A DNA stretch of 64,000 nucleotides from an uncultured bacterium (GTDB lineage: Bacteria > T1Sed10-126): positions 224 through 64,223 of the forward strand of contig CAZVWJ010000012.1 of NCBI GenBank assembly GCA_964631325.1, read 5' to 3'. A program made the translations under genes and the position numbers. Every line of letters begins with the position of its first letter. Positions within the stretch are counted from its first letter, which is position 1. A model generated the notes under the pieces. It had not been told where the DNA came from. It ran no database searches and saw only the letters and a program-made list of their open reading frames with translations. Below, piece by piece: positions 2,661 through 43,056 of the stretch.

Positions 2661-5564
2661 TCAGTTTTCTATTCCGGTTATAGTTTTCATGTATTTCCCA
2701 AACTCTTGGACCTTCTTAATACGGCTATTTTGAAGGTCCTTTATAAACTCTCTCCATTTCTTTGTTTGTTCCCCAGACAAATCATCATAAATAATACCCA
2801 GACATTTTAAGTACCCCGCTGATCTACTGGGTATATCATCTCTTTCCATACGGTCTTTTTGGGTAGGGCTAGCGACCTTATAAATTTTTGAAGACAACTC
2901 GTTAATAGAATCTTCATCTGGATCAATCTCACTTTTCATTTGTTCGTATATCCTACCCAAATAATATACTTTCATTTCTTGTTCAGTAGCGCTATTAATT
3001 CTATTTACGGACTTGGCAAATCTTTGTGTAAAATATTGTTTGACTTCTTCAGTCAGCTTTAGTTCATCTACCATCTCGTCAGTAACGTAATCTATAACGT
3101 CTTGACTGGCATCTAAATTTGAAGAAATTGGTATTTTAAAAATGAAATCTATTAAAAACTTGGTTCTTGGTGCTCCCTTATCTCCTTTGTAAAAATGAAA
3201 GCAAGGTATTAAGAGTCTATTGTTATTCACATCCTTTAAGATTCGCGCGGTTTTACTCAGTAGCTTTTCAAACGCTTCTAAATTAATTTGGTTTTCTAAA
3301 GCTAATATCGAAGCAAAAATGTGATCTGTCTCATCTTTCTTATATCTATCATCTTCATCTTTAAACTCGTCCGCTAAATCAAGCATCTTCGAAATCATGT
3401 TTGAGCGAACTTTAACTGCTTCATCCCCTTCGAGGTAAGAATCAAGTTCCTGGTAATTGTCAAAATACTTTATTTTTCCTGGGACTGGAGCATCTGGATC
3501 AGGCTCTAACGTATCCGCATAATCCTTAAACATTACTGGCTTAACATACTTCGCAACTGCCTTTTCCTCTTCTTGTAATATTTCAATTGCCTTGTCAAAA
3601 CGGGGAGCCGGGTGATCTACGAAGAATTCACTAATACTTTTTGAAATCGTTTCAGAAACGTCGCTGTTAGGCACACTTTCGTGATGTGAAACAAATGCTC
3701 TTAGAATTTCTTCATTAAAACTATTTTCAGCTTTTTCTGAACTTATTAATCGAGCCAAATAGACAAATACCTCTTTCGAATCAACTCGATTTACTGATAG
3801 AATCTCAAAGAGGGGATTAATAGGAAAATCTGTTAAATACTCAGGATCCTGCTGAATCAAGGTGATCAGTCGATCGATTACAACTTTATAAATTTCTGTC
3901 TTCCCTTCTTTATAATCTGAAGCAAGTTTCGCTGACGAAATAAGAATATCCTTCAAATCTTCAAATCTTTCATTCTTATAACATTCGAAAAGCTCTTTCC
4001 GTAAAACCGAAGTGTATGGTTCGATATATTTGATTTCTTCAGGATGGAAATCATTCCGGAACCCTTCTGAATCATAGATAGCTTCCTGGAATACGGATAT
4101 ATTTTCCGAATCTTTATGGGATGGATCAGCGAGATCAATAAAGGGGTCAAGATCCTCCACGTCATTAACTCGGGTTTCTCTCAGAAATGACTTCAACGTG
4201 GCTCCAAGAGATTTGTTTGTAGCATGAACAGGATCATTAAGAGTCTTGTGGAGTGGCTCATACTTTTGCTCTCGCTCGTCTACATTTAAATCAAAGTAAT
4301 CCCTCAGATCTTTTAGTAGAAATTTGTTTTTTTCCAGCCTTTGATAAAAACTCGGGAAAAATTCCTGCAGAACCAAAATTTTTGCTAAAAAATCGAGATT
4401 ACTTGTCACAACATTCCTTTTAATTTCTGGTTCTTCATCATCTTCAGATGTTTCAAGCTTTTCAGCCAATTCTCTCAAAACAACAATATTGTTAAGTATT
4501 TGCTTTATTTTTCTGGGGTTTTTAATTTTTGCCTTGTATAGGACATCTAGAACCTCGTGGGGGAGTTTCACTTGGAGAGTATCGTTCTGTTCATCGATAA
4601 ATTCTTCTGTGTTTTCCGCTTCCAATTTCGGTATGCGGAGCTGAGTTTGGAACATCTTTCTTAAAAATTCTCTACCAAATTTTTCATCAGCATTTGCCTT
4701 TTGTGATATATGAGAGATGAGAGCTTCCTCATCACAAGTAATCACAAATATGCAATCTTCATTTTCCATAAAAGTTTTGACTGAGATTAAAACTTCATAA
4801 GCAATTTCTGGCTCACATCTATCTAAATTGTCAATACCTATTATCAATTTCTCGAAATTCCCTTCCCTGTTTAAGGATTTATTTACAATTGACTGAAAAA
4901 TTTTCTCGTAAGCTCCAGACCATTCTTTTCTCGGATTTAAGGCTCTAATTTGAGGCTTGGCAACATACGAAATCAATTCCTTGATAACAGATATCCCAAT
5001 AATGGTACTTATGATTCCCAGAGATTGAGCAAGACTTCCGTACCAATATGCTATACCGGCTACGACAAAACCTACCGTATAAAGTGTTACGTAAAGTATT
5101 AATTTAGGAGGATTTTTGACTAAATTTTTCCACAAAGTACTTAAATTTGACTGAATTTCCTCAGTGACATCGTATAGTTGAGAAGTAATATCGCTTTCCC
5201 CTAATATCCCATCAGATTCCCCCAATTCATCTCCAATTAATTCATCTATTTGTAAAAGTAGCTCAGTCCGAACAGAGCCCTCGGCGTGCTTCCAAGCGTC
5301 AAAGTTAACACAAATATATTCATTATTTTCTTCTTTGAGTCTATTGAATAATAATTTGACTACTGAACTTTTACCGGACCCCCAAGGACCAAAGAGACCT
5401 ATATTGAATGGAGGATCAACTTTCTCAATTATGGTTTTAAGTGTTTTGGCATATTTTTTTCTCCCAAACTCATCCTCGCCGGGTGAGCCAATTTCTTCGT
5501 CGGGTAAAAGATAATATTCCTCATTGCCGCCAACTTCATTTTGAGAGCTACTCATCAATAACAA
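2661..5564 (-). CDS. KAP-family P-loop NTPase (PifA/Kidins220-like) with transmembrane insert
   Basis: Walker A GLFGPWGSGKSS near N-terminus; hydrophobic helices (LILYVTLYTVGFVVAGIAYWY..IISTIIGISVI) inserted in the NTPase domain as in KAP NTPases; 967 aa. Confidence 0.8.
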   Translation of the reverse strand: MLLMSSSQNEVGGNEEYYLLPDEEIGSPGEDEFGRKKYAKTLKTIIEKVDPPFNIGLFGPWGSGKSSVVKLLFNRLKEENNEYICVNFDAWKHAEGSVRTELLLQIDELIGDELGESDGILGESDITSQLYDVTEEIQSNLSTLWKNLVKNPPKLILYVTLYTVGFVVAGIAYWYGSLAQSLGIISTIIGISVIKELISYVAKPQIRALNPRKEWSGAYEKIFQSIVNKSLNREGNFEKLIIGIDNLDRCEPEIAYEVLISVKTFMENEDCIFVITCDEEALISHISQKANADEKFGREFLRKMFQTQLRIPKLEAENTEEFIDEQNDTLQVKLPHEVLDVLYKAKIKNPRKIKQILNNIVVLRELAEKLETSEDDEEPEIKRNVVTSNLDFLAKILVLQEFFPSFYQRLEKNKFLLKDLRDYFDLNVDEREQKYEPLHKTLNDPVHATNKSLGATLKSFLRETRVNDVEDLDPFIDLADPSHKDSENISVFQEAIYDSEGFRNDFHPEEIKYIEPYTSVLRKELFECYKNERFEDLKDILISSAKLASDYKEGKTEIYKVVIDRLITLIQQDPEYLTDFPINPLFEILSVNRVDSKEVFVYLARLISSEKAENSFNEEILRAFVSHHESVPNSDVSETISKSISEFFVDHPAPRFDKAIEILQEEEKAVAKYVKPVMFKDYADTLEPDPDAPVPGKIKYFDNYQELDSYLEGDEAVKVRSNMISKMLDLADEFKDEDDRYKKDETDHIFASILALENQINLEAFEKLLSKTARILKDVNNNRLLIPCFHFYKGDKGAPRTKFLIDFIFKIPISSNLDASQDVIDYVTDEMVDELKLTEEVKQYFTQRFAKSVNRINSATEQEMKVYYLGRIYEQMKSEIDPDEDSINELSSKIYKVASPTQKDRMERDDIPSRSAGYLKCLGIIYDDLSGEQTKKWREFIKDLQNSRIKKVQEFGKYMKTITGIEN

Positions 5565-8500
5565 CTTCTCAGGACGAGGTTTAGGCGCCAGAGGGGGGCG
5601 GCTTGCTCAATTGGTAGGTACCAAACGAATTTATTGATACCATCCCGGAAAAGCGGAGCCATCTCAGGCCAAATTCTTACAATCTCTTCCATTCTTTCAC
5701 CGAATCGAGAAGCTGACTCTTCTGGTTCTCCTTCAGAAATTGAGGAGGATAGTAGAGCCTCAACTATTGACTCAGCTTCACCGGTTAAATTATTGTCTTC
5801 CTTTGAAGGTAATGGCTTATCAGTTTCTTCAGAAGCCTTTTCTGCTCTTTTTTTAAGATGTTTAAATAATTTCTTTCTTAGATCTTCTTCATCTAAATAC
5901 CCTATCTGTGTGCCAAAGAATTCTAACGCCAGTCGGGAATTAATATCCTCAATCTCAAAAAGTTCATCAAAATCAAATTTTTCAATAACCTCCAGCAACT
6001 TTCCCCTTAACTCTGGATACATTGACCTATGGCCGACAATGGCATTTAACAAAGTCCACGCAATATCTTTACCTGGTTCTTCAATTACATCATTAAGAGC
6101 CTGTCTTGTATATTTTTTCATTAGATCCGACGAGACTAAAAACCCCATGTCTTCTCCAAAAGTCTCTTCGACTACATCATTTCTTGCCCGACCAAGAAAT
6201 GAATTTAAAGCATTCTCCCCAAGAGATGGGTCATTCATAAATTCAGGGTGAATCGATCTTTCATCTTCCTCTCCAACCATGAAGTTTGAAACCAATTCTT
6301 CTTCTACATCCATATCTTCTATCAGGTCAATCGGGAATTTTTCATATCTTGAAAATAAGCCCATGAATAAGAAAGTTCGCTTCTTTACTTCCCTCGGATA
6401 TGCCACATCGTTCCATAACTCAAAGTCCCGATCGAATGTAAGAAGATCAGTTTGTTCCATATTAATCCTAAAATGCTTAAAAATTTGCTCATTATTTATA
6501 CCCGAACGGAGAATAATATTCTGTAATTGAGAAGCGTGTATCCAATTCGCCAGCAAGTATTCCTCTTTGGTTAGCTGTTCGTGATATTGAAGACGGTTCA
6601 GTTCTCGATTCACCCATTTAAGCGTAATCATGAATGATTCGGTATGTAGAGAATCAGGATTCAAGAGCCCGTCTAAAATTTCCTCAGCTTTCTCCAAGGT
6701 CCAGGGATCGTCTTCTTGAAATTGCATTACCAAATTAAACAGGTGAATTAATCGAACAGCCGAAGCCCATTGATCCGATAAATTCTGCAATAAATCAACG
6801 CGATCATCCGAAGACAAGTTTTGTAATTCTTGATAGAGAGGGGCAGGAAAATGTTTTGGAAGATGTGCGAACCGATGGAATGCTTCTTCAAGACCCTCTT
6901 GATTGATTAGTTTTCGTGCTGCCTCTTCTAAAGATTCGTCTATTTCAGTAGCGTCAACTTCTTCATATCGAAGGAAATTTCTGAAAGACTCGGCTTCGGG
7001 AGGGATAAAATCTTCCCTTTTTAATGTTTGCGGCTCTGTGCTGGCCTGAGATTGTAGTTCAAAGTGGTAGAACGGAAGTGATTTCTCACGATATCTATGA
7101 ACTTGTTCCATTCGTTCTTTTAACGAATCTGCTTCTAACAACTCATCTAAGACGTCTTCAAACTCTTGCCTATCTCTATCGAACCACTCCGACCAGGTTT
7201 GTTCCAGAACATCCTCGATAACTCCTTCATCCCTCGACAAAAATCCACATTCAATACTTTCAAACGTAAATTCCTCATCTGTATCTTGATCCACAAATTT
7301 AATGCTATCGCAAAATTCATATTGGGAGTCCAATTCGTTTGGAGAAATTAAAAAAGTTTTCCGACCGGTCCTATCTTGTAACTCTACCTGTTCACTCTCT
7401 CTGTTTACTATAGTTGCGAGCGTCGGCCAAATTTCATTTGGCTTAAATTCGAATCCTGCAAACTCTATGGTTCCTTGAGGCTCTAAAGCAAGTGGATCGG
7501 CTATTCCAGCTAAATTTATATTTTTTTGAATTTTGACTGGCAAATCCCGAAAGAACCGCTGAAGTTGTGCCCGCATAGTTTTCTCTCGCGATTCATCTTC
7601 TAAATCCTCGTCTAAAAAACTAATTAAAAATTCTCGTATCGCTTCCCCCACAGAATTAATGAGAACCCCTTCGTTTAATTCTCTCGGAGCTAACATCCTA
7701 TTGTACAGCCATTGTAAATAATTTTTTCGAAATTTTGACTCCACTTGTGAATCCCCGTGAGTTATTTGAATAGCGTTGCACATAACCCTTCCTATATTTT
7801 GTCCATAAAAGACAAGATCATCCTGTTCATACTTCGTGAGTTCAAGAATTCGACGTATACCAAGCATATCAACAAACAGATTCGAAAATATCCAATTACT
7901 ATATGCTCGCTTCTCATTTTTATTTAAATTACCACTCGACCATATTTCAATTAATACAGCAGATATTTCATGAAATAGATTCATCGTATATCTTACTTCC
8001 CCCATTGAATTTTCAGCTTCAGTATCACTGGGGAATTGCAAATTGTCTTTGTCAATTTGAGTCCCACTAACGTATCGTCTTAAAACTTCAAGTTCATCTG
8101 TTCCTTCCACTGATAGCCCAAATCTATTTTCTTCAAAACTACTCTCATTAAGCCAATACAATATTTCCTCTGAATCTACGGGTAGATACCGTAAATCAGC
8201 TTCCCGCATATAAATCAAGTCACGATAGTAATGCTCTTCACTATAAAAATTATCTATCGTTGATTCAGATGATTCATCTTCTTGATACCTTTCTTCATGG
8301 CTTTGTCTTATCTTCTTTAAAACCTCTGGCATGCCGACAATTGGATTGCCCTGTATGTTCCCATGCCCACTTACATATCTATCATCAGTACAAACGACAC
8401 TCTCTTCTGAAAAATCACCGGTTAAAAGATCCACAAGTACTCTATAATTTGGTTCACGCATTTGTTCATTACTTATTTTTCCTTCCTGATCTTCGGCTAG

Positions 8501-10000
8501 TTCAAGGAACTGATACTTTTCTGGCTGATTTTCCTGAATATGATCGATCAGCGTTTCAATTTCTCCAGCCAGTGATAATCCCTGTTCGATACGCTTTAAA
8601 TTTTGTTCGATTTTCTGTTTTTCATTATTCGTAATAAAAACATTTGGGAAATACTCCAAAACCGACTCCAAAATCCCTTGTCTTTCAAGTTGTTCAATAG
8701 TGTTTCCGCCAAAGTACAAATCATCTTCAAGACTGGGAAGAACATCGTGGTCAACTTCTTCTCCATAACCACCTAAATCTTCTACCTTTGTTTCATACTC
8801 TTCTTCTGACCATTCACCAGATTCATAAATAGCTTTAAGAATTGTTTTGTTATTAACTACCAATTCTTCATATTCCCCAAGTTTGATTTCAGTCAAATTA
8901 CCATGATCATCTCTGACTGGAAGATACTCCACAATAACCCCATCTTTCTTCTTTGCTGTTTCGGCCATATGGATCCAGTCAATATCTTTAACGTCTTGAA
9001 AATCATGCCCTTCATATTCACTCTCGGAAGCATCTAAAACTTTAATTTCATCCTCTTTTATCCGCTCGGATAATCTCTCAAAATTTTCCTTTTGTATCGG
9101 TTGGTGCTTTGACTCACTTTCGGCCTGCTGTTGTAAAAATAAGATTGCAGACTTTGGCAATTTGATAGTTTCAAAGATCTGTTCGATGTGTTCAATCACT
9201 TCCAATTTCCAACCAATCAGTAAACTTGTCATATCCATCACAAATTTTTCAGTTCCTCGATCAATGAATGGATCAGTTCTGTGAGTTAAATCCCTTTGAT
9301 CGGAGGTTAATGATAGCGTTCCGTGTCGATTCATGATTGGAAAAGTCTTCCAATGGCTTTTCAATTGAGTATTTTCATCAAACACTTCCCAGAAAATATA
9401 CGGAAGGGTCGTCCCCATCGCCCCAATCCAAAAATGAAGCGGCATCTTCCCCTGATAATATCGATTCAATATTTCTCTATTTCTTTCTTTTTGCTCCTCC
9501 AGCATTTCCTTTGTTTCTTCAAGGGAGACTGCTCTTAATACATCTGGATCTTCTCCGGCGGACTCTCTCATCTTCTGAAACAGTTCCTTCATCTCATCAC
9601 TATCGTCAAGCCCCAGATTTGTACCGACCGTTACAGCACTTGCGATTAATTGAGGCGTATCAATTTCAAACTCTAAAGCTTTTTCCCAAAGTCGTTTGCT
9701 AATTACTCCCTCATCACCATCTTTTGGTAATAAATGTGCCACTCGTAGTAATAAAAAGGGATCTTCTAACTCCTGAGCTTGACCAAGCAACTCTTCACCG
9801 ATCCTGACAATTTCTTCCTCATCCCCCTTGTAAAGCAGTGATTCAATGTAAAGGTGATAATTCTGGGAGGTAGGCTTATCATCAACTAAATCTTTTGCCT
9901 CACTCTCTGCCTGATCAAAGTTACCAATTTGCAAAAGGGACTTAATTTTTACCTGCCGAAGTTGATTATCCATTTGAAGTTTATTCGTCATAGTACTCAC
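5555..10000 (-). CDS. giant hypothetical protein (1481 aa), acidic, predicted helical/TPR-like N-terminus, no catalytic motif recognised
   Basis: long uninterrupted ORF overlapping both neighbours by 10-20 nt (translational coupling); no Walker A, no nuclease/protease motif found by eye. Confidence 0.6.
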   Translation of the reverse strand: MSTMTNKLQMDNQLRQVKIKSLLQIGNFDQAESEAKDLVDDKPTSQNYHLYIESLLYKGDEEEIVRIGEELLGQAQELEDPFLLLRVAHLLPKDGDEGVISKRLWEKALEFEIDTPQLIASAVTVGTNLGLDDSDEMKELFQKMRESAGEDPDVLRAVSLEETKEMLEEQKERNREILNRYYQGKMPLHFWIGAMGTTLPYIFWEVFDENTQLKSHWKTFPIMNRHGTLSLTSDQRDLTHRTDPFIDRGTEKFVMDMTSLLIGWKLEVIEHIEQIFETIKLPKSAILFLQQQAESESKHQPIQKENFERLSERIKEDEIKVLDASESEYEGHDFQDVKDIDWIHMAETAKKKDGVIVEYLPVRDDHGNLTEIKLGEYEELVVNNKTILKAIYESGEWSEEEYETKVEDLGGYGEEVDHDVLPSLEDDLYFGGNTIEQLERQGILESVLEYFPNVFITNNEKQKIEQNLKRIEQGLSLAGEIETLIDHIQENQPEKYQFLELAEDQEGKISNEQMREPNYRVLVDLLTGDFSEESVVCTDDRYVSGHGNIQGNPIVGMPEVLKKIRQSHEERYQEDESSESTIDNFYSEEHYYRDLIYMREADLRYLPVDSEEILYWLNESSFEENRFGLSVEGTDELEVLRRYVSGTQIDKDNLQFPSDTEAENSMGEVRYTMNLFHEISAVLIEIWSSGNLNKNEKRAYSNWIFSNLFVDMLGIRRILELTKYEQDDLVFYGQNIGRVMCNAIQITHGDSQVESKFRKNYLQWLYNRMLAPRELNEGVLINSVGEAIREFLISFLDEDLEDESREKTMRAQLQRFFRDLPVKIQKNINLAGIADPLALEPQGTIEFAGFEFKPNEIWPTLATIVNRESEQVELQDRTGRKTFLISPNELDSQYEFCDSIKFVDQDTDEEFTFESIECGFLSRDEGVIEDVLEQTWSEWFDRDRQEFEDVLDELLEADSLKERMEQVHRYREKSLPFYHFELQSQASTEPQTLKREDFIPPEAESFRNFLRYEEVDATEIDESLEEAARKLINQEGLEEAFHRFAHLPKHFPAPLYQELQNLSSDDRVDLLQNLSDQWASAVRLIHLFNLVMQFQEDDPWTLEKAEEILDGLLNPDSLHTESFMITLKWVNRELNRLQYHEQLTKEEYLLANWIHASQLQNIILRSGINNEQIFKHFRINMEQTDLLTFDRDFELWNDVAYPREVKKRTFLFMGLFSRYEKFPIDLIEDMDVEEELVSNFMVGEEDERSIHPEFMNDPSLGENALNSFLGRARNDVVEETFGEDMGFLVSSDLMKKYTRQALNDVIEEPGKDIAWTLLNAIVGHRSMYPELRGKLLEVIEKFDFDELFEIEDINSRLALEFFGTQIGYLDEEDLRKKLFKHLKKRAEKASEETDKPLPSKEDNNLTGEAESIVEALLSSSISEGEPEESASRFGERMEEIVRIWPEMAPLFRDGINKFVWYLPIEQAAPLWRLNLVLRSCY

Positions 10001-12182
10001 CTAGCATTCGCAACGTCTCGCGAGGCCTCCCACTGTTAAAAGCCCCCGCCACAGCCATTCTTTTAGCGCTATCAGTCATAACCTTTTCAATCAACTTTTG
10101 TTTATGATCATAAACAAATTCCCAGTCTCCCTGCTGGGCCTTCAACTCGCATAATTCATACAAAAAATCCCCTCGCTCTGTTTCTTTATATTTGGATTCG
10201 AGATATTCTTCCAAATCCTCATACTTTTCGTCTTCATAACCTTTTCGGTGATAAGACATATTTTGAATCTGTTCAAAATAACTGAGATCTTGACATGACT
10301 GGACGGTATCTAAAGCCTTTTCATATTCTCCTTGGAGCAATAGAATTCTGGCTTTCCAATATTTCCATAATTCTTTTGAATCCCCACCAAATATTTCTTT
10401 ACTTTCTTCATGCAGCCAAATGGCATCATCTATATTCCCTCTAGATAATAAAGCAACCAATAATCCAATTACTTCATTAACCCCAGGAGAATATTTTTCA
10501 AAACGCTGAATTACTTCATTAGCGGTAAGTTGGTTAACTACATTAAAATCTCTGGCTGTCCCCCAAATAAAAGCCCCATAATGAATCGAATTTTCGGAAA
10601 GCAATTTTTCAGCGTAATTATTAGCACTTTCTGTATTGCCGGGGTCTTCCAACTCATCTAAATTTGCCTTACAGGCTAATTTCCAGACTTCTAAATCTAC
10701 TGCCTCTCTTTCATTTTCAGTTGCAATATCAATCAATTCATCAAAAGTATCCTGGGCTTCCTGAAGTCTCTCTCGAATATCTTCGTCTTTGATTAGATAA
10801 TGTCTGAAGACAGGCATGGGGGGATTTAAAGGCTGATCTGGGAGAATGACAGGAGAGAAAGCTGAATGATAATAAATTATTCCTTTAGTCCGCTGAACTT
10901 CAAAATTGTCTGGCTCCTCTTCCGCAATTTTCTCGATTTGGTCATATGCCTTTCCTAAATTTTCTTGTAATAAAAATGCTATAGCTTTTAATCGCTTGGT
11001 TTCATAATTTAAGGTGAACTCATCTTCAAATTCATCAAGGCGACTCCAAAAATCTTTGATTTCATTCATTTCCAACAAACAGGCAAGTATTAAATTACCT
11101 GCTTCTATAGTGGAGGGGTCTTCTAGTTGATTTAAAACCTTGCTAGGATTTTCTTCATGGTATAGTACTACAAATTTTTCGTATTCAGTGTTTATATCAA
11201 CCTGTAATTGATCAATTTCTTCGAAAATTTTTCTTGCTTCCGGAAAATCTTCCTCAATAGTGGCTTTTAAAACAGCTTCAATTTTTAATATTTCTGCTCT
11301 AACTTCATTATCATTTAGAAATTTTTCATTTTCTCGGAGGTTTAAAATTTGTTCATATGCACGTCGTGTCCTACCTTGTTTTAGAAGATTTTTCACCTCC
11401 TGAAGTTCTTCAAAAGTCATTTCGGTAATTCTTTCGAAAGCTTGCTCGTTAACAATATTTTTCTTTTTTAATTTTTGTTTTAAGTTTCTATCTGTATTTG
11501 GATTTTCCTCACAAATTACATTAATCCAATGATCTGCCGGTTCCAAAAAACGAGCAACTATATGAGGATGGTCCATCAATTTATCTTTTAATTCTCTAGC
11601 TGACCAAACTTCAAAATCAATTCCATGTTTTTTTAATCTTTGTATTTGGTTTTCAATTACATCATGCACTTGAGTCCGTTGGATATCACTCGCTAAAAAT
11701 AAAATAATTTTCTTAACTCGCTCAAAATCCCAATGATCTTCATTTTCTTCTAATATTCGATTCACAACATTTGTAATAAGTTTTGGTTCTACTTCTACAT
11801 GAGATTTACATTCACCTAAAATAATCTGGTCTTCTGAAGTAATTGCTTTAAGATCAACTCCAAAATCAGATTGGCCTTCTATACCATATAACTCACAAAA
11901 CTCGATATGATTCTCTTTTCTAAGAATATTTAGACAAAGTTTTTCAAATCGTTTTGGAGTCAATTGATAAAAAGGGGGGGATAAATCTAGTTTTATATTC
12001 GGGGTAATAAACTCAGCTTCATCATAAATTGGAAAATCCTCAGGATTAGATTTAGAGTTCTGAAAAACTTTACTACTTGCCTTTTTGTTATAATTTTTAT
12101 CCATTTTTTTCACCTCAGGATCACTGTTATGATCTTTTCTTTTCAATTTTTTCATTGAGTTCACTAAGCGACTCACATTCAT
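9981..12182 (-). CDS. Mrr-like PD-(D/E)xK restriction-endonuclease domain fused to C-terminal TPR/helical repeats
   Basis: N-terminal FEKLCLNILRKENHIEFCELYGIEGQSDFGVDLKAI...ILGECKSHVE matches Mrr_cat (D...E-x-K) pattern; remainder TPR-like; true start may be the internal MDKNYNKK. Confidence 0.65.
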   Translation of the reverse strand: MNVSRLVNSMKKLKRKDHNSDPEVKKMDKNYNKKASSKVFQNSKSNPEDFPIYDEAEFITPNIKLDLSPPFYQLTPKRFEKLCLNILRKENHIEFCELYGIEGQSDFGVDLKAITSEDQIILGECKSHVEVEPKLITNVVNRILEENEDHWDFERVKKIILFLASDIQRTQVHDVIENQIQRLKKHGIDFEVWSARELKDKLMDHPHIVARFLEPADHWINVICEENPNTDRNLKQKLKKKNIVNEQAFERITEMTFEELQEVKNLLKQGRTRRAYEQILNLRENEKFLNDNEVRAEILKIEAVLKATIEEDFPEARKIFEEIDQLQVDINTEYEKFVVLYHEENPSKVLNQLEDPSTIEAGNLILACLLEMNEIKDFWSRLDEFEDEFTLNYETKRLKAIAFLLQENLGKAYDQIEKIAEEEPDNFEVQRTKGIIYYHSAFSPVILPDQPLNPPMPVFRHYLIKDEDIRERLQEAQDTFDELIDIATENEREAVDLEVWKLACKANLDELEDPGNTESANNYAEKLLSENSIHYGAFIWGTARDFNVVNQLTANEVIQRFEKYSPGVNEVIGLLVALLSRGNIDDAIWLHEESKEIFGGDSKELWKYWKARILLLQGEYEKALDTVQSCQDLSYFEQIQNMSYHRKGYEDEKYEDLEEYLESKYKETERGDFLYELCELKAQQGDWEFVYDHKQKLIEKVMTDSAKRMAVAGAFNSGRPRETLRMLGEYYDE

Positions 12183-12564
12183 CAGCCAATTGTTTTAATT
12201 CTTCCCAATCTGTATCTTGAACAGTCTCTTCTGTATCACTTGGATTTGAATCCGGGGTATTATCTGGAGCGAAATTCTGTCTTAGTTCTTCCCCAAACCA
12301 ATTCTCGGTAAATAAAAAAATATTTACTTGGGGTGTATCTTTTCCATCGCTTTTTAAAAAAGGTATAGAACTCCAATCTAAACGAGCTTTCCCAACTTTA
12401 CATAACCAGAAAATTAAGCAAAAAACTAATAAATGAATAAATAAATGTGAAAACCAACGAATATTGTATCCTTCTGGATAAACAAGATCGCTATAGTAAA
12501 ACCTCACCTCATCAATAAATCGAGGTAAACCAAATTGCTTATACTTAATCGTATTGATCCTCAA
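12127..12564 (-). CDS. small membrane protein (one TM helix, acidic tail)
   Basis: 145-aa ORF with hydrophobic segment HLFIHLLVFCLIFWLC; overlaps MTase stop by 20 nt and next gene start. Confidence 0.35.
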   Translation of the reverse strand: MRINTIKYKQFGLPRFIDEVRFYYSDLVYPEGYNIRWFSHLFIHLLVFCLIFWLCKVGKARLDWSSIPFLKSDGKDTPQVNIFLFTENWFGEELRQNFAPDNTPDSNPSDTEETVQDTDWEELKQLADECESLSELNEKIEKKRS

Positions 12565-15500
12565 TTATTTGAATTTCTTCATTTGTGAGTCCATATAGCT
12601 CATAAACTATCCGATCAATTTCTTGGTCGGTTTCTTCGATTTTTTTCTCAATGTTTAATTTTTCGGAGTCCGATGTTACTTGAGTAAGACTTCCATGTAA
12701 ACTGAGCATCCTATCGGCTTTTTCGGCGATTTGATCGCGCAGTTCAACTTCAGTTGAGTTCGATTCATCGATTTGTTTGATGGGGAGTTGCTCCATGTAT
12801 TGGTAGATATAGCGAAGATATCCGCCTCGGTAAGATGAACAGATGTTTTCGTAATAAAAGGCAAGTAGTTTCGAGTTGAGTAAACCCAGTAAATAAGGAT
12901 CGTCACTGGATATTATGTAAGCCGTGTTTACACAATAATAATTGCCATCTCGATCCAGTGTGAAGTTACCCCTTTCAGCAATATCTGGAACTATTAATTT
13001 GGGCTTTTCAAATTCATCGTAATAATCGCAGGCTCGAAGTTCCCACCAGTATTCTCCTTGATCGTATCGTTCCCGAGCTCTTTCCTCATATTGACTCAGG
13101 TATCCGGTAATAGCTGGATACTGTTGCTTCAACCATTGCCATTCATCCGCGTCTTTTGGAGCATTTTCATTAGTCCAACCGTTGGGGAAGAAAATTAGAT
13201 AATGTTCTGGTGACAAGGATGCATATCGCTTGATATCGCGGCCCTTCAAAAATGGTTTAAGCCGTTCATCGCTGGCTGGGTTTTTATCAATTAATTCCTG
13301 ATACTTAGCCGAGTCAATTACAAAGGCTTTGTTCAATCCTGTTTTAATCCCGTAGTGAATTCCACCATTTACGACTTTTTTTAAAGGCTTGGACTGATCC
13401 CTTACTTTACGAAGCAAATCTTGAGTTTCTTTACCTACAAGTGTCCAACTTCCTCCCGTTAGGAATTCCTTATTCATAGGAAATGAATCTTCCCGGAAGA
13501 GAACAGATAAATCTCCGAGAATATCGTCTTGTTCATTGGCAACGTCGAGGGCGGTGAATTCACCATTAAAAGAAGTCGGAGACATCATCAGAATACAGGG
13601 GTAAGTCGTGGCGGTATCGAAAACTGTATAATCGCCGAAATTGATCAGTTTTCGAATCGGTTGGTCATCGAGCCAACTGCGAAGATTCTTTCCGTATTTG
13701 GCTCGCATCCATTTGTTGGACACAATGTAGCAGAAGGTCCCCTCCTGGTTCAATAACTTGTAACCACGTTCGATGAAATAAGTGTAGAAATCCGCGGTGC
13801 CATAATAAGTTTCATAATGATTCTTAAAATATTCTTTCTGTTCTCCCAAGTCCTCCTGTCTGACGTAGGGCGGATTAGCGATAACTACATCAAACCCGTT
13901 ATTTTCCAGGAAGACTTCGGTGAAGTAGAGTTCCCAGAGGAAGAACGGGCGACGGCGGGACTGTTTTATTTCTTCGAGTTCTTTTAGTTTTTCTTCTTCG
14001 TCGTGTTCCTCCAGGGTGGCTTCAATGAGTTCCCAGTGTAGCTCTTCAATTTCTTCGCGTAATTCTCGTTTTTCGCTCTTGCGGACGGCATCCGCGAATT
14101 CTTTTTGAAGTTGATCCAATTCTTCTGCCTTTTTACGGGCCTCACTGTGGCGCTGGAAGAGGTCAGGGGTTCCATGCTGGTTTTGTTGTTCACTCTCTAA
14201 ATTTCCTATTTCTTTTTTTATCTTTTCCAATTCATTGTCCAAACGTTTCTGTTCGGCTGATGGAAGATTACCGGACTGGTGGCGGTCTATATATTGTTTT
14301 TCAAGGGACCGTTGTTTCTCTTTTAATTCTCGGCGGCGGGCTTCGGTATCGGCTTGCCGGTCACGGATAAGTTCGGAGTCAAACAGTTCAATCCCCTCGT
14401 ATTCCTCGACCAGCGAGTCGCCCTGCATAATTCGGTACTCGAGGTTGGGTAGGGGTTTAATCTCTTCATAGTCTTCCTCATCAACGACCAGGGAGAGCCA
14501 GAGGCGGAGCTTGGCGATATCAACGGAACTGGGATCAATATCAACGCCGTAGAGATTATGTAAAATAGCGTGGCGCTTGAGCTCATACTGGCTGCGATCT
14601 TCACCGGAATCAAGATAGGGAGTGAGCAGGCGGCGCAGTTTGACGATCTCCTGCATCAGGCCGACCGGGAAGGCGCCGGAACCGATTGCCGGGTCGCAGA
14701 CTTTAATCTCGGCAAGTAGCGCGTCAATTTTGTTGACCCGCTCACGGATAGAATCGGGAATTTTTTGTTGGCGTTCGGCAAGATCACCTTCCGCAACGGC
14801 CGCTTCGTGTTGAAGCAGAAGATCACCGTGTTCAACGACTAATCTTATGTCCGCTTCAGGAATGTCCCCCCCATCTGTATCTTCCCCCACCGGGGGGGAA
14901 GAGCTTTCACCCTCACCCCGGCCCTCTTCCATCGAGGGAGAGGGAGTTTGGTCCCCCTCATCCGCCCTGCGGGCACCTTCTCCCACCGGGGGAGAAGAAT
15001 CACCCCCATCTTGCTCTTCCCCCATCGAGGGGGAAGAGCTTTCACCCCCACCTGTGTCCTCCCCCGTCGAGGGGGAGGAGATGTTTTTGCTATCTGGGGA
15101 GAGATTATTTTTATTGTTCAAATGTGTGGAGAGGTAATTGACCAGGCTTTCCTGGCACATGTAGTGGACTATTTCGCGGGGGGTGTAGAAAGCGCCCTTT
15201 GATTTGCGGTCCTCGACGTCAAGCATGCGCTCGTAGACCTTGCCCAGCATCTCGGGATCAACGGCGACTTCTTTTTCCAGCGGTTCATCCTCGCGGATGG
15301 TGAAGTTGTAGCGGTCGAAGGTGTCAAAAATCTCGGCGAAGAGTTCGTCGGGGAGGGTGAGTTCAGTCTCGTCCCAGGCGTAGTTATTTATCGGTTCAAA
15401 TAAACCGCCGTTTAAAAAGGGAATGCGGCACTCCAGTTTTGAATCCATGGCGCCCCGGCCGCGGTCGACGGCAAGCGAGTTGTAGAACAGGTGTTCGAGC

Positions 15501-16402
15501 ACGTCGTTGTAAAAATTGTCGTAAGCACAGTATTCGCCCGCAAAGAGCCGGCGGAGAAAATCTTTCGGACCGGTGCCCCACTCGTGGAAAGAGCCGGAAG
15601 CATCGCGTTCGACGCCCAGCCAGCCTTTTTTCTGAATAAAATAGAGGAAGACAATCTGGCCGAGGAGCTTCTTGGCAAAACTGGTCGGGGTAATATCCTT
15701 CTTGTCAAACTCCGCCCGGATTTTATCGTCCGCCGTTAATACCTCTTCGGTGGCCTCTTTGGCTTCCAGGAACAGCTCCCGGTATTGCTCGAAGAACTCG
15801 TCGGAAACCGGTTCAACGCTAAAGGCTTCTTCAAGTTCAGCCAGGCTGGGTTTGCTCTCCTGATCAAGAACCCGGGCGAGCTGTTTCTGGGCCGTATGAT
15901 TTGGTTCGTTGGCCCCGACAAGATAGGAAAAGCGCTTGGCCGGCGATAGCTCCCGCCGGGGCCGGGTCTTCCCGGCCTCAGTTTCCTGGAGGCTGTAGTC
16001 AACCTTGACCAGGGAAAACCGCCAGTCGGGGTGGCCCTCGGTGTGAAAGGCAACCAGCGCCCCGTCCTTCTGATAGCCCCGGCTGTCCCGCAGATACCAG
16101 CCAACAAAATTACGCTGGGCGGTGCGGGCGCGGCGCAGGTTGGAAACCTGGTTGAGATGGACAACCAGCACATGGATGTATTTACCGTTTGGTTCGTCGT
16201 ATTTTCCGAGGCGGCGGTAGGACTTGACGTATTTTTTGTAGGCTTCGGGGATGTTGTAGCCGGACATACTTTTCTGGGCTTCCTCGGAATCATCAAAATC
16301 GCGCTGGAGGAGGTTATTGATAAAGTTATGGTAGCGGGCCTCGTCAAACGGTTGGTCGAAGGTGTTTTTAATAACGTTTTTCGTGGCTTCCTGAACAGTC
16401 AT
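12545..16402 (-). CDS. gamma-class N6-adenine DNA methyltransferase, PglX / Type IIG (Eco57I-MmeI)-like, with TaqI-C-like target recognition region and internal acidic tandem-repeat linker
   Basis: motif I VCDPAIGSGAFP; motif IV DVVIANPPYV; C-terminal GIHYGIKTGLNKAFVI typical of TaqI_C-type TRD; 1285 aa; repeat SPS/PVGE-D/E-GG-ESS inserted upstream of the MTase core. Confidence 0.8.
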   Translation of the reverse strand: MTVQEATKNVIKNTFDQPFDEARYHNFINNLLQRDFDDSEEAQKSMSGYNIPEAYKKYVKSYRRLGKYDEPNGKYIHVLVVHLNQVSNLRRARTAQRNFVGWYLRDSRGYQKDGALVAFHTEGHPDWRFSLVKVDYSLQETEAGKTRPRRELSPAKRFSYLVGANEPNHTAQKQLARVLDQESKPSLAELEEAFSVEPVSDEFFEQYRELFLEAKEATEEVLTADDKIRAEFDKKDITPTSFAKKLLGQIVFLYFIQKKGWLGVERDASGSFHEWGTGPKDFLRRLFAGEYCAYDNFYNDVLEHLFYNSLAVDRGRGAMDSKLECRIPFLNGGLFEPINNYAWDETELTLPDELFAEIFDTFDRYNFTIREDEPLEKEVAVDPEMLGKVYERMLDVEDRKSKGAFYTPREIVHYMCQESLVNYLSTHLNNKNNLSPDSKNISSPSTGEDTGGGESSSPSMGEEQDGGDSSPPVGEGARRADEGDQTPSPSMEEGRGEGESSSPPVGEDTDGGDIPEADIRLVVEHGDLLLQHEAAVAEGDLAERQQKIPDSIRERVNKIDALLAEIKVCDPAIGSGAFPVGLMQEIVKLRRLLTPYLDSGEDRSQYELKRHAILHNLYGVDIDPSSVDIAKLRLWLSLVVDEEDYEEIKPLPNLEYRIMQGDSLVEEYEGIELFDSELIRDRQADTEARRRELKEKQRSLEKQYIDRHQSGNLPSAEQKRLDNELEKIKKEIGNLESEQQNQHGTPDLFQRHSEARKKAEELDQLQKEFADAVRKSEKRELREEIEELHWELIEATLEEHDEEEKLKELEEIKQSRRRPFFLWELYFTEVFLENNGFDVVIANPPYVRQEDLGEQKEYFKNHYETYYGTADFYTYFIERGYKLLNQEGTFCYIVSNKWMRAKYGKNLRSWLDDQPIRKLINFGDYTVFDTATTYPCILMMSPTSFNGEFTALDVANEQDDILGDLSVLFREDSFPMNKEFLTGGSWTLVGKETQDLLRKVRDQSKPLKKVVNGGIHYGIKTGLNKAFVIDSAKYQELIDKNPASDERLKPFLKGRDIKRYASLSPEHYLIFFPNGWTNENAPKDADEWQWLKQQYPAITGYLSQYEERARERYDQGEYWWELRACDYYDEFEKPKLIVPDIAERGNFTLDRDGNYYCVNTAYIISSDDPYLLGLLNSKLLAFYYENICSSYRGGYLRYIYQYMEQLPIKQIDESNSTEVELRDQIAEKADRMLSLHGSLTQVTSDSEKLNIEKKIEETDQEIDRIVYELYGLTNEEIQIIEDQYD
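14860..15085. repeat. intragenic imperfect tandem repeat (encodes SPSxGE(D/E)xxGG(E/D)SS units) with C7 and G7 homopolymer tracts
   Basis: repeated tcttcccccatcgagggggaagagctttcaccc-like units visible in the sequence; tgtccccccc and caccggggggg tracts. Confidence 0.7.
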
Positions 16403-16900: not shown

Positions 16901-16930
16901 AATGTTTCAGTCAATATCCAGCTCACCTTT

Positions 16931-16978
16931 TACTGTGACATTACTGTGACATTACTATGACATTTACTATGACATTAT
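16931..16978. repeat. 11-bp tandem repeat x4 (tactgtgacat / tactatgacat)
   Basis: directly visible immediately 3' of the AlbA_2 gene stop (16987). Confidence 0.7.
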
Positions 16979-16986: not shown

Positions 16987-18402
16987 TTAGTTTGGAAATT
17001 GATAAAACGCAGTTGGGTCAGTTTCCGATTCTGCCTTTCTTTCCAAAACACCTTTTTCCTGTAAACTTGTTAGTTTTCTATTCACAGTTCGCTTTACTTT
17101 CCCTATCAACTCAACGGCTTCCTTAGTGGTTATTTTTTGATTTTTTTGGATGTAATTAACAATTTTTTGCTCATCCTCATCAAGATCAACCTCATTTATC
17201 CCGTCATTTATCCCGTCATCCTTCTTTGTCGGTTTCAGTGGAATAATGGTCTTAAAAATGTCATCCTCAATTAATTTCGGGGTGGCCCCGGAAGTATAGA
17301 TTCCACAGTATTTAAAGGTATTGCGGACGCCGGAACCAAGCTCATCAGCACGTCCAATCTCCTTGAAAAAACTGGCAATCACCGGGTTCTTGGGATAGGG
17401 CGAGAAATTATCCGGGTTGATTTCCCCCACGTTGCGGGTGCGGTTGGCGTTCTCCGTCAGAACTCTGTCTTCCTCAATGATCAACTTAGCTGGATAGGGA
17501 TTCGTGTATTCCCGGTGAATCAACAGGTTCCCGATGACTTCGTGAAAAATAAGATCACGGACGCTTATTCGTTGATCGCCTTCGTTGTAGTATTTATCGG
17601 GAAGATGCTTTTTCACGAAGGCCATGAGCCGATCGTAACTTTCAATTAAATTCGTCCGCACGTCATCTCTGTCGTCGTAGCGATCCTTATTTTCAACCCG
17701 CTTGATCGCATCCGTCCGGTGATGTGGACACACGTCCCGAATAACCTCGTCCTTTCCCAGCAACAGAACGGCTGCCAACGTATACCCGGATTTGTTTGAC
17801 TGGCGGTCCTCCCGGTAAAGACCGGCTGAACGAAGAAGCTCCCGGTCCTCCAATTCCAGCCACGGATGGTTCTTACGTTCACTACGGGCAAGCTTCCGTA
17901 TTCGCTCAAACAGATCGTTTTTGAAATCGCCCATTTCTACAAACGGGTAAATCTCGTTCTCCGTGTAGGTCGACTGCTTGCGCCTGTAAAGCTTACTTAC
18001 CTGCTCAGGCTGGTCCGTTATATCCAGATCCCCGTCCTCATTACGGTCATAGATTTCCCCACATGTCCGGTGGACCTGTGAGCTTTCCGGCACGAAAGTG
18101 TGGAGGACGTGCTTTCCCTCGTATTCAATGGTCTCCGGGGACAAATAAAATGGCGGATTGAGTTTTTGTGAATTGTTGGCATTGTTCACGATGCTGTTAA
18201 TGACATCCTGAACACATTGTTCCAAAACGCCCACTACTTCCTTGTCGTCATTGATTCCCAGGAACAGGTGACCTCCGTTGCGGTTAAGGAAGGCACAAAT
18301 CGTTTCAAAGGCGTTCTCATTGAGTTTCGAGCGGGATTCCTTGAACTCAACCTCAATTCCCTCGCCCGCCTGGAGATATTGCTCGAGTTCTTCCGGTTCC
18401 AT
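16987..18402 (-). CDS. AlbA_2 (Schlafen-like divergent AAA/putative DNA-binding) domain protein with HATPase_c_4-like and C-terminal wHTH regions
   Basis: N-terminal VEFKESRSKLNENAFETICAFLNRNGGHLFLGINDDKEVVGV matches AlbA_2 pattern; C-terminal HTH; abuts helicase gene (stop 18403 / start 18402). Confidence 0.7.
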   Translation of the reverse strand: MEPEELEQYLQAGEGIEVEFKESRSKLNENAFETICAFLNRNGGHLFLGINDDKEVVGVLEQCVQDVINSIVNNANNSQKLNPPFYLSPETIEYEGKHVLHTFVPESSQVHRTCGEIYDRNEDGDLDITDQPEQVSKLYRRKQSTYTENEIYPFVEMGDFKNDLFERIRKLARSERKNHPWLELEDRELLRSAGLYREDRQSNKSGYTLAAVLLLGKDEVIRDVCPHHRTDAIKRVENKDRYDDRDDVRTNLIESYDRLMAFVKKHLPDKYYNEGDQRISVRDLIFHEVIGNLLIHREYTNPYPAKLIIEEDRVLTENANRTRNVGEINPDNFSPYPKNPVIASFFKEIGRADELGSGVRNTFKYCGIYTSGATPKLIEDDIFKTIIPLKPTKKDDGINDGINEVDLDEDEQKIVNYIQKNQKITTKEAVELIGKVKRTVNRKLTSLQEKGVLERKAESETDPTAFYQFPN

Positions 18403-28899: not shown

Positions 28900-29370
28900 A
28901 TGTCTGAAAGAATGAATAAACTAGCCCTACGGCAGATGGAAAAAAAATTAGATAAAATTAAATTTGATGCCAAAATCCCGGACAAGGGCTGGGTGCGCTC
29001 TATCCGGAAAGCCCTGGGAATGACTTTAAAGCAATTAGCAAAACGAATTGGTGTGACCAGGCCAACGGTTTCCGAATATGAAAAACGGGAGGCGGCAGGT
29101 ACGATTACGCTCAACAGTCTCAGAAAAGCGGCAGAAGGGCTGGGCTGTCGGTTCAGGTATGCCCTGGTGCCGAAGGATAGTAGCTTGAAGGAATTCCGTG
29201 AAAAAGCCGCCCGGAAAGCGGCCGCGAAGCTGGTTGAAAATACTTCCCGCTCGATGGCCCTTGAAGACCAGGAAGTTTCAGAATCGGAAAAAGAGAAGCA
29301 GGTGGAAGAACTAAAACAGGAATTTCTTAATGAGTGGGATAATTCAATCTGGGATGTTGAAGCCGAGTAA
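28900..29370 (+). CDS. XRE-family HTH protein (mobile mystery protein A-like)
   Basis: GWVRSIRKALGMTLKQLAKRIGVTRPTVSEYEKRE HTH; overall resemblance to TIGR02612-type proteins is from memory. Confidence 0.5.
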   Translation: MSERMNKLALRQMEKKLDKIKFDAKIPDKGWVRSIRKALGMTLKQLAKRIGVTRPTVSEYEKREAAGTITLNSLRKAAEGLGCRFRYALVPKDSSLKEFREKAARKAAAKLVENTSRSMALEDQEVSESEKEKQVEELKQEFLNEWDNSIWDVEAE

Positions 29371-31880: not shown

Positions 31881-31923
31881 TAACCCTCGTTAAAAACTCA
31901 CAGATAGAGGCGAATCAAGCAGA

Positions 31924-42810: not shown

Positions 42811-42879
42811 TTAAGTCCTCCGAATCAGCCAGATAAATTCAACAGCCAAGTGCAACATAAAACATCAACGACTTCCACT

Positions 42880-42990: not shown

Positions 42991-43056
42991 TTGTTGCATT
43001 TGTTAATTGAATCCAAGGCTCATAATTTAACGCAGACACACATATTATTTACCACT

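Follow-up and report, generated by a model that had tools for sequence, protein, structure and literature searches.

A probable composite immune operon with a predicted split giant TPR-PIN protein at its core, from a probable haloarchaeon

The AT-rich block studied here lies in a 64,000-nucleotide stretch of DNA (the window) and is interpreted as a composite immune operon whose core is a split member of a family of ~2,100-aa giant proteins, a reading to which a probability of about 0.6 is given. The host is probably a halophilic archaeon and the locus probably lies on the chromosome. Judged from sequence, the giant family is a sister architecture of the TGP (TPR-GreA/B-C-PIN) systems, and the locus would combine a split TGP-like sensor/effector with accessory slots whose genes can be exchanged. 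The preliminary description had proposed a novel defense operon outside the named systems, built from a nuclease, a scaffold-like protein and a membrane NTPase. To call it a defense-type operon without a match among PADLOC or named systems is fair. However, the triad does not hold as a unit, because the nuclease-TPR protein and the supposed scaffold appear to be two halves of one protein.

The block consists of four minus-strand ORFs (2661-5564, 5555-10000, 9981-12182 and 12127-12564), which are real and packed with overlapping junctions as first described. The REase-TPR gene overlaps the giant gene by 11 nt, the giant stop and the KAP start share 1 nt (TGATG), and the last ORF, ORF145, overlaps the stop codon of the type IIG gene that precedes it. 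The order of the five-gene row is type IIG R-M enzyme, slot 1 (ORF145), REase-TPR, giant and slot 2 (KAP). The GC content is 30-41% across ~1.2 to 14 kb versus 45-55% in the rest of the window, which agrees with the AT-rich block of ~35% GC reported earlier. Scans of the locus for bacterial promoters and terminators were uninformative. The features are given below, with the domain numbering of the C-terminal half following the 1481-aa ORF.

12545..16402, minus strand: type IIG restriction-modification enzyme, 1285 aa, assigned by Pfam and PADLOC; first gene of the packed row
12127..12564, minus strand: slot 1, ORF of 145 aa with a single hydrophobic helix; starts with TTG, doubtful as a gene
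9981..12104, minus strand: predicted N-terminal half of the split giant; 707 aa if started at the ATG at 12104 (longest ORF 733 aa from 12182)
~11505-11975, minus strand: Mrr-like PD-(D/E)xK nuclease domain (motif, Pfam matches of homologues, AlphaFold)
between nuclease domain and TPR solenoid of the 707-aa protein, minus strand: disordered linker
~9990-11435, minus strand: TPR solenoid, aa 224-705 of the 707-aa protein (AlphaFold)
5555..9991, minus strand: predicted C-terminal half of the split giant, 1478 aa (longest ORF 1481 aa)
9551-10000, minus strand: TPR-like N-terminus of this half, aa 1-150 (weak TPR matches)
9320-9523, minus strand: HTH, aa 160-227
8276-9253 (approximate), minus strand: PIN-type alpha/beta nuclease region, aa ~250-575
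C-terminal half, listed between the PIN region and the beta-rich domain, minus strand: winged-helix-like and helical parts
7259-7468 (approximate), minus strand: beta-rich domain at the Permuted_GreAB-C position, aa ~845-914
5558-6733, minus strand: conserved C-terminal extension, aa 1090-1481
2661..5555, minus strand: slot 2, membrane-inserted KAP-family P-loop NTPase, 964 aa (Pfam KAP_NTPase)
~4467-5462, minus strand: NTPase domain of KAP
~4959-5108, minus strand: two hydrophobic helices of KAP

Collinearity with single-chain relatives indicates that the 733-aa and 1481-aa proteins are two halves of one giant protein. In a search with a profile of the core, 1,721 clusters scored E <= 1e-3 and 712 scored E <= 1e-30; most are proteins of ~2,100 aa. 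Among the best 150 relatives, the TPR part of the 733-aa protein is present in 135 and the C-terminal extension in 141, while 51 carry the REase domain at their own N-terminus (53 when the window protein and its homologue from the one close relative, L001, are included). In 133 of these 150 the homology blocks of the two proteins lie directly next to each other on a single chain of ~2,100 aa, and the median gap between them is -4 aa, equal to the 11-nt overlap of the two genes. The N-terminal half is collinear with residues ~2-680 of the single chains, and the window protein totals ~2,185 aa over its two genes. The cut falls inside the TPR array and leaves proteins of 707 and 1478 aa. Word-indexed searches with the giant, an alignment of it and the REase-TPR protein had falsely suggested an orphan: nothing turned up beyond self, L001 and a single relative at 22% identity, and the search that covered 5.8 billion proteins gave 3 matches. 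This was overturned by the exhaustive profile search. A genome scan found one locus among 185,579 species genomes, and no locus was found in the first scan of metagenome contigs or in a scan of viral contigs with a six-sequence alignment.

The N-terminal half carries the nuclease and the TPR repeats that were first noticed, and both are upheld. Pfam Mrr_cat matches the window protein at E 0.0098 and the domain alone at 0.001, both below the cut-off (16.4-19.6 bits on the window protein versus 21). However, 11-12 of 19 homologous domains match Mrr_cat or Mrr_cat_2, and the motif D84...E98-C-K100 is kept in 49 homologues as D...Q/E-C-K. The AlphaFold model of the 707-aa protein (pLDDT 88.6) has the REase topology alpha-beta-beta-beta-alpha-beta, with D84 and E98-C-K100 on strands 2-3, followed by a TPR array for which TPR scaffolds are the best Foldseek matches. 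The D...(E/Q)xK motif on this predicted core places the domain among the Mrr-like PD-(D/E)xK nucleases. A profile-versus-PDB sequence search with the REase segment gave only noise.

The 1481-aa protein was first thought to have no recognisable domain. It matches PF24407 (E 8e-8), has a PIN fold and belongs to a large family, so that description no longer applies. PF24407 is matched by 24 of 24 relatives, PIN-TPR-GreABC by 9 of 24 (best 3e-8) and Permuted_GreAB-C by 6 of 24; the PIN-TPR-GreABC match of the window protein itself is not significant (E 1.6). The GreA/B-C-like segment of the window protein gave no match to PF24388, no GreA-like structure was recovered for it, and its profile-versus-PDB sequence search returned only noise. 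Foldseek with the core against the PDB found nothing significant. The domain order of the family is a variable N-terminal effector, a TPR solenoid, an HTH, a PIN-type RNase module, a helical region, a permuted GreA/B-C-like domain and the C-terminal extension.

TGP systems have been predicted to be conflict systems by Kaur, Iyer, Burroughs & Aravind (2021, eLife; PMC8195603). Their genes are mostly stand-alone, with an effector repertoire like that of the relatives found here (PMC8195603). Agp, a canonical TGP protein from the Bab/Agp system, confers protection against phage T5 on E. coli, for which its GreA/B-C domain is required (bioRxiv 10.1101/2024.11.07.622273). Both TGP and the giant family combine constant TPR, PIN and GreA/B-C-type regions with a variable N-terminal effector, and in both the REase is the commonest effector and TIR, PNPase and trypsin also occur. 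In the window the constant part has its TPR region in the AlphaFold solenoid and in the weak TPR matches at the N-terminus of the giant, and the effector is a REase; the relatives carry REase, TIR, PNPase (PNP_UDP_1), trypsin, EAD11 or caspase. The PIN domain of the relatives matches PF20698, the Pfam model built for TGP, and the logic proposed is the same for both: sense, cut RNA and release a suicidal effector. However, the family is about twice as long (~2,100 versus ~1,100 aa), the order is reversed, with HTH and PIN preceding a circularly permuted GreA/B-C-like domain, and a conserved C-terminal extension of ~390 aa is added. A canonical TGP protein is a single chain of ~1,100-1,700 aa with TPR, GreA/B-C and PIN in this order, usually encoded by a stand-alone gene, whereas the window chain is in two genes within an operon that also holds a type IIG enzyme and, at its end, one further gene. 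Because the order differs and ~2,185 aa are spread over two genes, the window protein is filed as a sister or variant and not as a canonical TGP. Beyond the TGP papers, the HTH/double-PIN/permuted-GreAB-C architecture was found in the literature only as the Pfam entries PF24407 and PF24388.

The slot 2 protein is, as first described, a membrane-inserted KAP-family NTPase. Pfam KAP_NTPase matches at E 3.6e-35 (122 bits versus a gathering cut-off of 20), and two hydrophobic helices (aa 150-199) lie between Walker A (GPWGSGKS) and Walker B (IGIDNLDR). PADLOC profiles match the NTPase part, namely QatA (1e-25), PDC-S20 (3.5e-24) and PifA (3.7e-23), and all three share with it a P-loop NTPase with TM helices inserted between the Walker motifs. 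The likeness to PifA stood as a profile signal on the NTPase part but not over the full length: it is limited to positions 7-315 of 720 of the PADLOC profile, and assignment to PifA was rejected. Assignment to Qat was rejected as well, as the QatA score of 108 bits is under the NCBIfam cut-off of 600 and no match to QatB, QatC or QatD was found among the neighbour genes scanned. The C-terminal ~600 aa are without a known domain and are common only to stand-alone haloarchaeal homologues. The closest plasmid-borne homologues are those of Haloterrigena, Natrinema and Halococcus (29-33% identity over 81-91% of the length), which are monocistronic and located beside integrases and restriction genes. 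Because these nearest plasmid-borne homologues stand alone, KAP may act alone.

Comparison with L001 points to an exchangeable last gene. Its split pair is 48-50% identical to the window pair and has the same +1-frame, 11-nt overlap, and its type IIG gene, in the same position, is 68% identical. Slot 1 of L001 is a 241-aa PycC-like cyclase (PADLOC 2.8e-5) unrelated to ORF145. In its slot 2 the gene of a small TIR protein begins at the identical TGATG junction; this protein matches CAP12/Pycsar-TIR weakly. The DNA of the two loci is ~80% identical as far as TGTTATTGATG and the identity collapses directly past the ATG, which opens the KAP gene in the window but the TIR gene in L001. From these sequences the gene after the giant is probably an exchangeable slot at a conserved TGATG overlap (n = 2), the split archaeal-type loci known being two plus one identical fragment. 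The PycC-like cyclase and the TIR of L001 resemble Pycsar (cyclase plus TIR/TM effector), but in L001 only; the scores are weak, the 6.5-kb split giant separates the two genes and the window has nothing comparable.

Conservation of the triad across genomes had been set as a check, and it went against the triad on both sides. TIR replaces KAP in L001, the closest KAP homologues on plasmids are all haloarchaeal and stand-alone, and the family member is a stand-alone gene in 31 distant metagenomic loci with neither KAP nor a slot-2-type gene beside it. The family is also stand-alone on cyanobacterial plasmids. As it stands alone in bacteria, operon partners are not needed in general. The stand-alone state of these KAP homologues and of the giant family, together with the listing of KAP proteins in PADLOC as the single-gene candidate PDC-S20, is what would be expected if the locus were a defense island in which the split TGP-like protein, KAP and the type IIG enzyme are independent modules, co-transcribed and with no dependence between the giant and KAP. 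This is a possible though less probable explanation. It is countered by the identical 1-nt TGATG overlap in two loci at ~50% protein identity, which is kept despite a different downstream gene and points to selection for coupled expression and not to chance adjacency. For the composite operon, a further and tentative suggestion is that the split giant sits in a fixed operon frame of halophilic archaea, that recombination at precise gene borders puts new genes into the slots and that the giant acts as a general sensor of infection, licensing whichever effector pair the slots contain. If this is true, it would be a modular, multi-layer archaeal immune system of an undescribed kind.

The split itself appears to be old, as the +1-frame overlap of 11 nt recurs in L001 although the proteins are no more than 48-50% identical. 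The ORFs are exactly collinear with single chains and an overlap of 11 nt in different frames fits a +1/-2 frameshift, as if a single ~2,185-aa gene had been broken into a non-functional remnant or misassembled. This is very improbable, since besides the shared frame geometry both halves are open throughout in each locus (707 and 1478 codons without a stop), every junction provides an ATG, the catalytic residues of PIN and REase are preserved, and an independent assembly of a different sequencing run gave an identical 733-aa ORF. Programmed frameshifting is also unlikely: no slippery motif was seen at the junction, the giant's frame begins 3 nt after a stop codon, and each locus has an in-frame ATG.

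In the proposed mechanism, the two halves would be made by coupled translation, and we infer that they reassemble physically through the TPR solenoid. The complex would then monitor the transcription machinery or another infection cue, its presumed trigger, through the GreA/B-C-like and TPR parts. The PIN site would cut RNA, its likely substrate, and the DNase would be released as a second, suicidal line of defense. The slot 2 gene is most likely an additional abortive-infection effector or module that would be co-expressed with the giant and possibly licensed by it. With the type IIG enzyme heading the same row, restriction and abortive layers would be expressed together. The sense-and-kill logic proposed at the outset survives in this form, with an exchangeable last gene and not as a three-component triad. 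A housekeeping or regulatory role, for example in an RNA-processing or transcription-associated complex, is highly unlikely given the very patchy distribution (3 in 5.8 billion proteins, 1 among 185,579 species genomes), the foreign-looking AT-rich block, the varied toxin-type N-terminal effectors (TIR, PNPase, trypsin, caspase, REase) and the neighbours, which are R-M, PLD-SNF2, toxin-antitoxin and IS elements.

GreA/B are bacterial factors and, to our knowledge, are absent from archaea, so a TGP-like giant sensor in a probable haloarchaeon puts the 'RNA-polymerase guard' model of TGP to the test; an RNAP-docking role of the giant in an archaeon is speculative. Beyond CRISPR and R-M, very few antiviral systems of archaea are known to have been characterised. 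The locus suggests that an immune-type protein of ~2,100 aa, elsewhere a single chain, can remain stably divided within its TPR array. The exchange of KAP and TIR at a conserved stop/start overlap would be a natural, exact cassette exchange, and the idea of effector licensing is therefore directly testable by gene swaps. The family of more than 1,700 protein clusters is without a model in PADLOC v2.

The genes at the upstream end were described as a small TM protein and a PglX-like MTase. The latter has to be revised. The gene is a type IIG R-M enzyme (Pfam Eco57I 7e-47, TaqI_C 1e-18; PADLOC REase_MTase_IIG 6e-235, full-length), and its NCBIfam PglX scores of 77-95 bits are far under the cut-offs of 400-900. 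BREX was rejected on these grounds, and no match to PglZ or BrxC was found among the seven genes scanned. The 1285-aa product matches known type IIG enzymes (Eco57I/MmeI-like) over its full length, but it differs from them in being translationally linked to non-R-M genes and in having a low-complexity acidic, Gly/Ser-rich insert and an internal GC jump. For the small TM protein, a TM-like segment (aa 34-60) was found and ORF145 is called by the gene caller on the NCBI contig, but it has a TTG start with no internal ATG, no homologue and no match in Pfam, PADLOC or NCBIfam, and the gene is doubtful. Adjoining the locus are a PLD-SNF2 gene and a Schlafen/AlbA_2 gene (Pfam, PADLOC), which speak for a defense context. 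DISARM was rejected, as neighbour genes gave partial matches to DrmD and DrmMI with no DrmA or DrmB gene among the genes scanned; the lone DrmA match (1e-17) falls on the helicase domain of the PLD-SNF2 protein.

An uninterrupted series of ORFs is read on the minus strand of the window.

Minus-strand ORFs of the gene row (coordinates, strand, product)
21648-18403, minus, PLD + SNF2 helicase
18402-16987, minus, Schlafen/AlbA_2 + wHTH protein
16402-12545, minus, 1285-aa ORF, type IIG restriction-modification (R-M) enzyme
12564-12127, minus, 145-aa ORF
12182-9981, minus, 733-aa ORF, REase-TPR
10000-5555, minus, 1481-aa ORF, the giant
5564-2661, minus, 967-aa ORF, KAP NTPase

The TTG start of the 145-aa ORF and the stop codon of the type IIG gene overlap. 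The ATG of the giant falls, in the +1 frame, within the ...TAC TAT GAC GAA TAA that ends the REase-TPR gene, so that the two overlap by 11 nt, and the giant ends in ...TGT TAT TGA with the ATG of the KAP gene within TGATG, a 1-nt overlap. Since the ORFs and overlapping junctions are present and identical protein sequences are recorded from a single 64,789-bp NCBI contig, the packed block of four genes noted in the preliminary description is real. Its AT-rich character was also confirmed (GC 30-41% at ~1.2 kb to ~14 kb versus 45-55% elsewhere in the window). Inside the type IIG gene (12545-16402) GC is ~41-46% on the 3' side and 53-56% on the 5' side, with the jump at ~14000-14400, thus the AT-rich block seems to start within that gene. 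The gene may accordingly be a mosaic whose methyltransferase/TRD end moved together with the downstream genes.

The giant had been described as an orphan without a recognisable domain, which did not hold. HTH_upst_double_PIN (PF24407) is matched at aa 160-227 (Pfam, 8e-8), with a faint PIN-TPR-GreABC match directly past it. A word-indexed search with the giant returned three proteins only: itself, P0002, the 48%-identical giant of the close relative locus L001, and a 1718-aa protein of 22% identity, in which a TIR (N-terminal), PF24407 and, faintly, Permuted_GreAB-C and PIN-TPR-GreABC were matched. When the core (aa 150-1100) was used for an exhaustive profile search, 1,721 cluster representatives passed E <= 1e-3 and 712 of them E <= 1e-30; these relatives are mostly of ~2,100 aa, with the core at ~residues 830-1740.

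The window halves were compared with the top 150 family representatives by a local phmmer run. Of the 150, 135 contain the TPR part of the 733-aa protein (~residues 190-680) and 51 carry its nuclease domain N-terminally (E down to 2e-38; 53 matches with the window and L001 proteins counted). The first 150 aa of the giant are found in 100/150 and the last 390 aa in 141/150. In 133 representatives a single chain carries both homology blocks end to end; the extrapolated gap between them has a median of -4 residues (interquartile range -4 to -4), the exact equivalent of the 11-nt overlap. For example, the 2106-aa relative P0018 matches the 733-aa protein over residues 2-674 and the giant over residues 686-2102. 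Because both halves are collinear on single chains of relatives, sequence comparison places a split form in the window, cut inside the TPR array. The halves in L001 are 50% and 48% identical to those of the window and have the same +1-frame 11-nt overlap (...TAT TAT GGT CAC TAA). A separate assembly of a different sequencing run also yielded an identical 733-aa ORF. This makes the split an old and maintained one, not the product of a sequencing error or a recent frameshift. Two other relatives, L005 (from a Pyrinomonadaceae MAG) and L031, have 1356 and ~1330 aa and start at the HTH without the effector-TPR part, so the family may have further split points or shorter forms. In L005 the giant is followed by an Xre-HTH gene and a PD-(D/E)xK nuclease gene.

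TPR-GreA/B-C-PIN systems were described by Kaur et al. 2021 (PMC8195603); the name TGP is used in the 2024 Bab/Agp preprint. They combine a constant region of TPR, GreA/B-C and PIN with a variable effector (REase, HNH, TIR, SIR2, PNPase, peptidases) or an EAD at the N-terminus, and the genes are mostly stand-alone. REase+TPR+GreAB-C+PIN of ~1,100 aa is a very frequent architecture in the source table. It has been proposed that GreA/B-C docks on RNA polymerase, that PIN cleaves the transcript and that the effector is freed on failure (PMC8195603). In the 2024 preprint the TGP protein Agp and Bab shield E. coli from T5, and GreA/B-C mutations abolish protection. The giant family has the same parts list and effector repertoire, with TIR, PNP_UDP_1, trypsin and EAD11 seen among 24 relatives and a caspase annotation in a Leptolyngbya plasmid relative. 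However, it is twice as long, has HTH and PIN ahead of the permuted GreA/B-C-like domain, carries an extra conserved C-terminal extension and, in the window, is split into two genes. The Pfam names PF24407 and PF24388 show that the domains are already known to curators, while no published description of the architecture was found in the literature searched and PADLOC v2 has no model for the family. For these reasons the family is treated as a sister or variant of TGP and not as a canonical member. That the window protein is a split member of this TGP-like family is very probable.

The giant core was modelled with AlphaFold from a 65-sequence alignment (pLDDT 87.3, pTM 0.76). A three-helix HTH, an alpha/beta region and a helix-helix-hairpin (winged-helix-like) are followed by a helical region, a beta-rich domain with one helix and more helices. 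Across 152 family members, acidic residues are conserved at D256 (98%), E273 (92%), D539 (99%), D540 (100%) and E559 (96% acidic), and all five are present in the window giant. They are read as a PIN-like catalytic set, thus the giant is likely an active RNase; a decayed gene is unlikely. Permuted_GreAB-C is matched in 19/30 relatives (Pfam, best 9.8e-9), and the segment concerned is aligned with the beta-rich domain of the window giant (aa ~845-914). The window's own segment gave no match to this model, and structure and profile searches recovered no GreA-like structure, so the equivalence is indirect. In the REase-TPR half (pLDDT 88.6) the nuclease domain is alpha-beta-beta-beta-alpha-beta-alpha-beta; D84 precedes strand 2, and strand 3 contains E98-C-K100. 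Next come a disordered linker and a TPR solenoid, the latter with Ctr9, APC and Ski3-type scaffolds as best Foldseek matches. The motif D...Q/E-C-K occurs in 49 homologues of the nuclease domain and Mrr_cat or Mrr_cat_2 is matched in 11-12/19 homologous domains; given the predicted fold, motif and matches, the name Mrr-like nuclease, fused to TPR, stands.

The 967-aa protein is assigned to the membrane-inserted KAP NTPases, as previously suggested, by Pfam KAP_NTPase (3.6e-35), the motifs GPWGSGKS and IGIDNLDR and two hydrophobic helices between them. PADLOC matches it to QatA (1e-25), PDC-S20 (3.5e-24) and PifA (3.7e-23), each time over the NTPase part. QatA identity is ruled out (108 bits versus a cut-off of 600), and the likeness to PifA is confined to the first 315 of 720 model positions. 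The 1285-aa gene, taken earlier for a coupled PglX-like MTase, is assigned to type IIG R-M (PADLOC 6e-235; Eco57I and TaqI_C domains) and a BREX PglX identity is rejected. The row matches no PADLOC or named system. An acidic Gly/Ser/Pro-rich low-complexity insert at aa ~440-515 of the type IIG protein comes partly from a 42-bp tandem repeat (15000-15080). The 145-aa ORF has a single hydrophobic helix and no homologue in Pfam, PADLOC or NCBIfam. All proteins of the row are very acidic (D+E 17-21%), the nearest plasmid homologues of the KAP protein are haloarchaeal, and chromosomal genes, nuo and sdh among them, occupy the remainder of the window, all of which makes a halophilic archaeon the probable host.

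The giant of L001 ends in the same TGT TAT TGATG, but there a 153-aa TIR gene (Pfam TIR_2 2e-21) begins at the ATG. DNA identity between the loci is ~80% up to this ATG and collapses immediately past it. The stretch from the type IIG stop to the conserved PPFYQL of REase-TPR is also exchanged, with the 145-aa ORF in the window and a 241-aa PycC-like cyclase in L001 (PADLOC PycC 2.8e-5; Pfam Guanylate_cyc 1e-3), while the type IIG gene is kept at 68% identity. With type IIG and the split halves conserved, these two loci are suggestive of a common frame of type IIG, slot 1, REase-TPR, giant and slot 2 with differing slot contents. In L001 the cyclase (1387-2112) and the small TIR protein (8564-9040) flank the split giant and look like a Pycsar-like signal/effector pair divided by 6.5 kb, the giant's two genes; a 116-aa gene without matches follows the TIR gene.

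Gene order, overlaps, domains, folds, conserved catalytic residues, collinearity with single-chain relatives and the slot exchange are observed; the mechanism is a proposal. In it the halves, made by coupled translation, would reassemble via the TPR array into a complex that may sense infection, possibly via the transcription machinery. RNA would be cut at the PIN site, and the Mrr-like DNase would serve as a suicidal fallback. The membrane KAP NTPase would be a co-expressed abortive-infection module, whose licensing by the giant may or may not occur, and the type IIG enzyme a first, non-suicidal layer. We give this whole reading, functional KAP link included, a probability of about 0.55-0.6. 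That the giant and KAP are independent neighbours without a functional link is rather unlikely. In 31 metagenomic loci, as on cyanobacterial plasmids, the gene for the giant stands alone, with no KAP or TIR neighbour detected, and no KAP fusion occurs among the representatives examined. The closest plasmid-borne KAP homologues (Haloterrigena, Natrinema, Halococcus; 29-33% identity over 81-91% length) are monocistronic, near integrases and restriction genes. These data do not bear out a conserved KAP, Mrr-TPR and giant triad. In favour of a functional link, suggestively with two loci compared, are the shared TGATG junction, the loss of identity immediately past the ATG, the exchange at slot 1 and the kept type IIG gene. 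The preliminary description thus points at a real, defence-like locus, and a non-defence role is unlikely. Its novel triad with an orphan scaffold gives way to a split, operon-embedded and probably archaeal variant of a large TGP-like family, with a last gene that appears exchangeable.

Other genes were noticed in the window. A second defence-like pair lies directly upstream of the type IIG gene (16987-21648, minus strand), a 1081-aa PLD(HKD)+SNF2 helicase (PADLOC 'C3a139 HKD+Snf2' 7e-58, partial DrmD matches) and the abutting 471-aa Schlafen/AlbA_2 + wHTH protein. The intergenic region that separates the latter from the type IIG gene has 4.3 copies of an 11-bp unit (TTACTATGACA; 16930-16977), which could regulate the operon. 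A second Schlafen/AlbA_2 + HATPase_c_4 + wHTH protein (505 aa, 25693-27210) is paralogue-like to the 16987-18402 copy. An SbcC/Rad50-like ATPase (800 aa; AAA_23, SbcC_Walker_B) and, after it, a calcineurin-like phosphoesterase (388 aa) at 29478-33090, adjoined by an Xre-type HTH gene (28900-29370), could be housekeeping Rad50/Mre11 or defence-associated. The strong positive AT skew at 40000-47000 (+0.3 to +0.4) fits the T-rich codons of membrane proteins and is no anomaly; the minus-strand genes there encode NADH:quinone oxidoreductase or Mrp-type membrane subunits (Proton_antipo_M x3, NADHdh). A 584-aa ORF at 48890-50644 joins an Endonuclease V domain (6e-57) to a poly(A)-polymerase/CCA-adding head domain (1e-18) and is either an unusual fusion or a GTG-start ORF-calling artefact.
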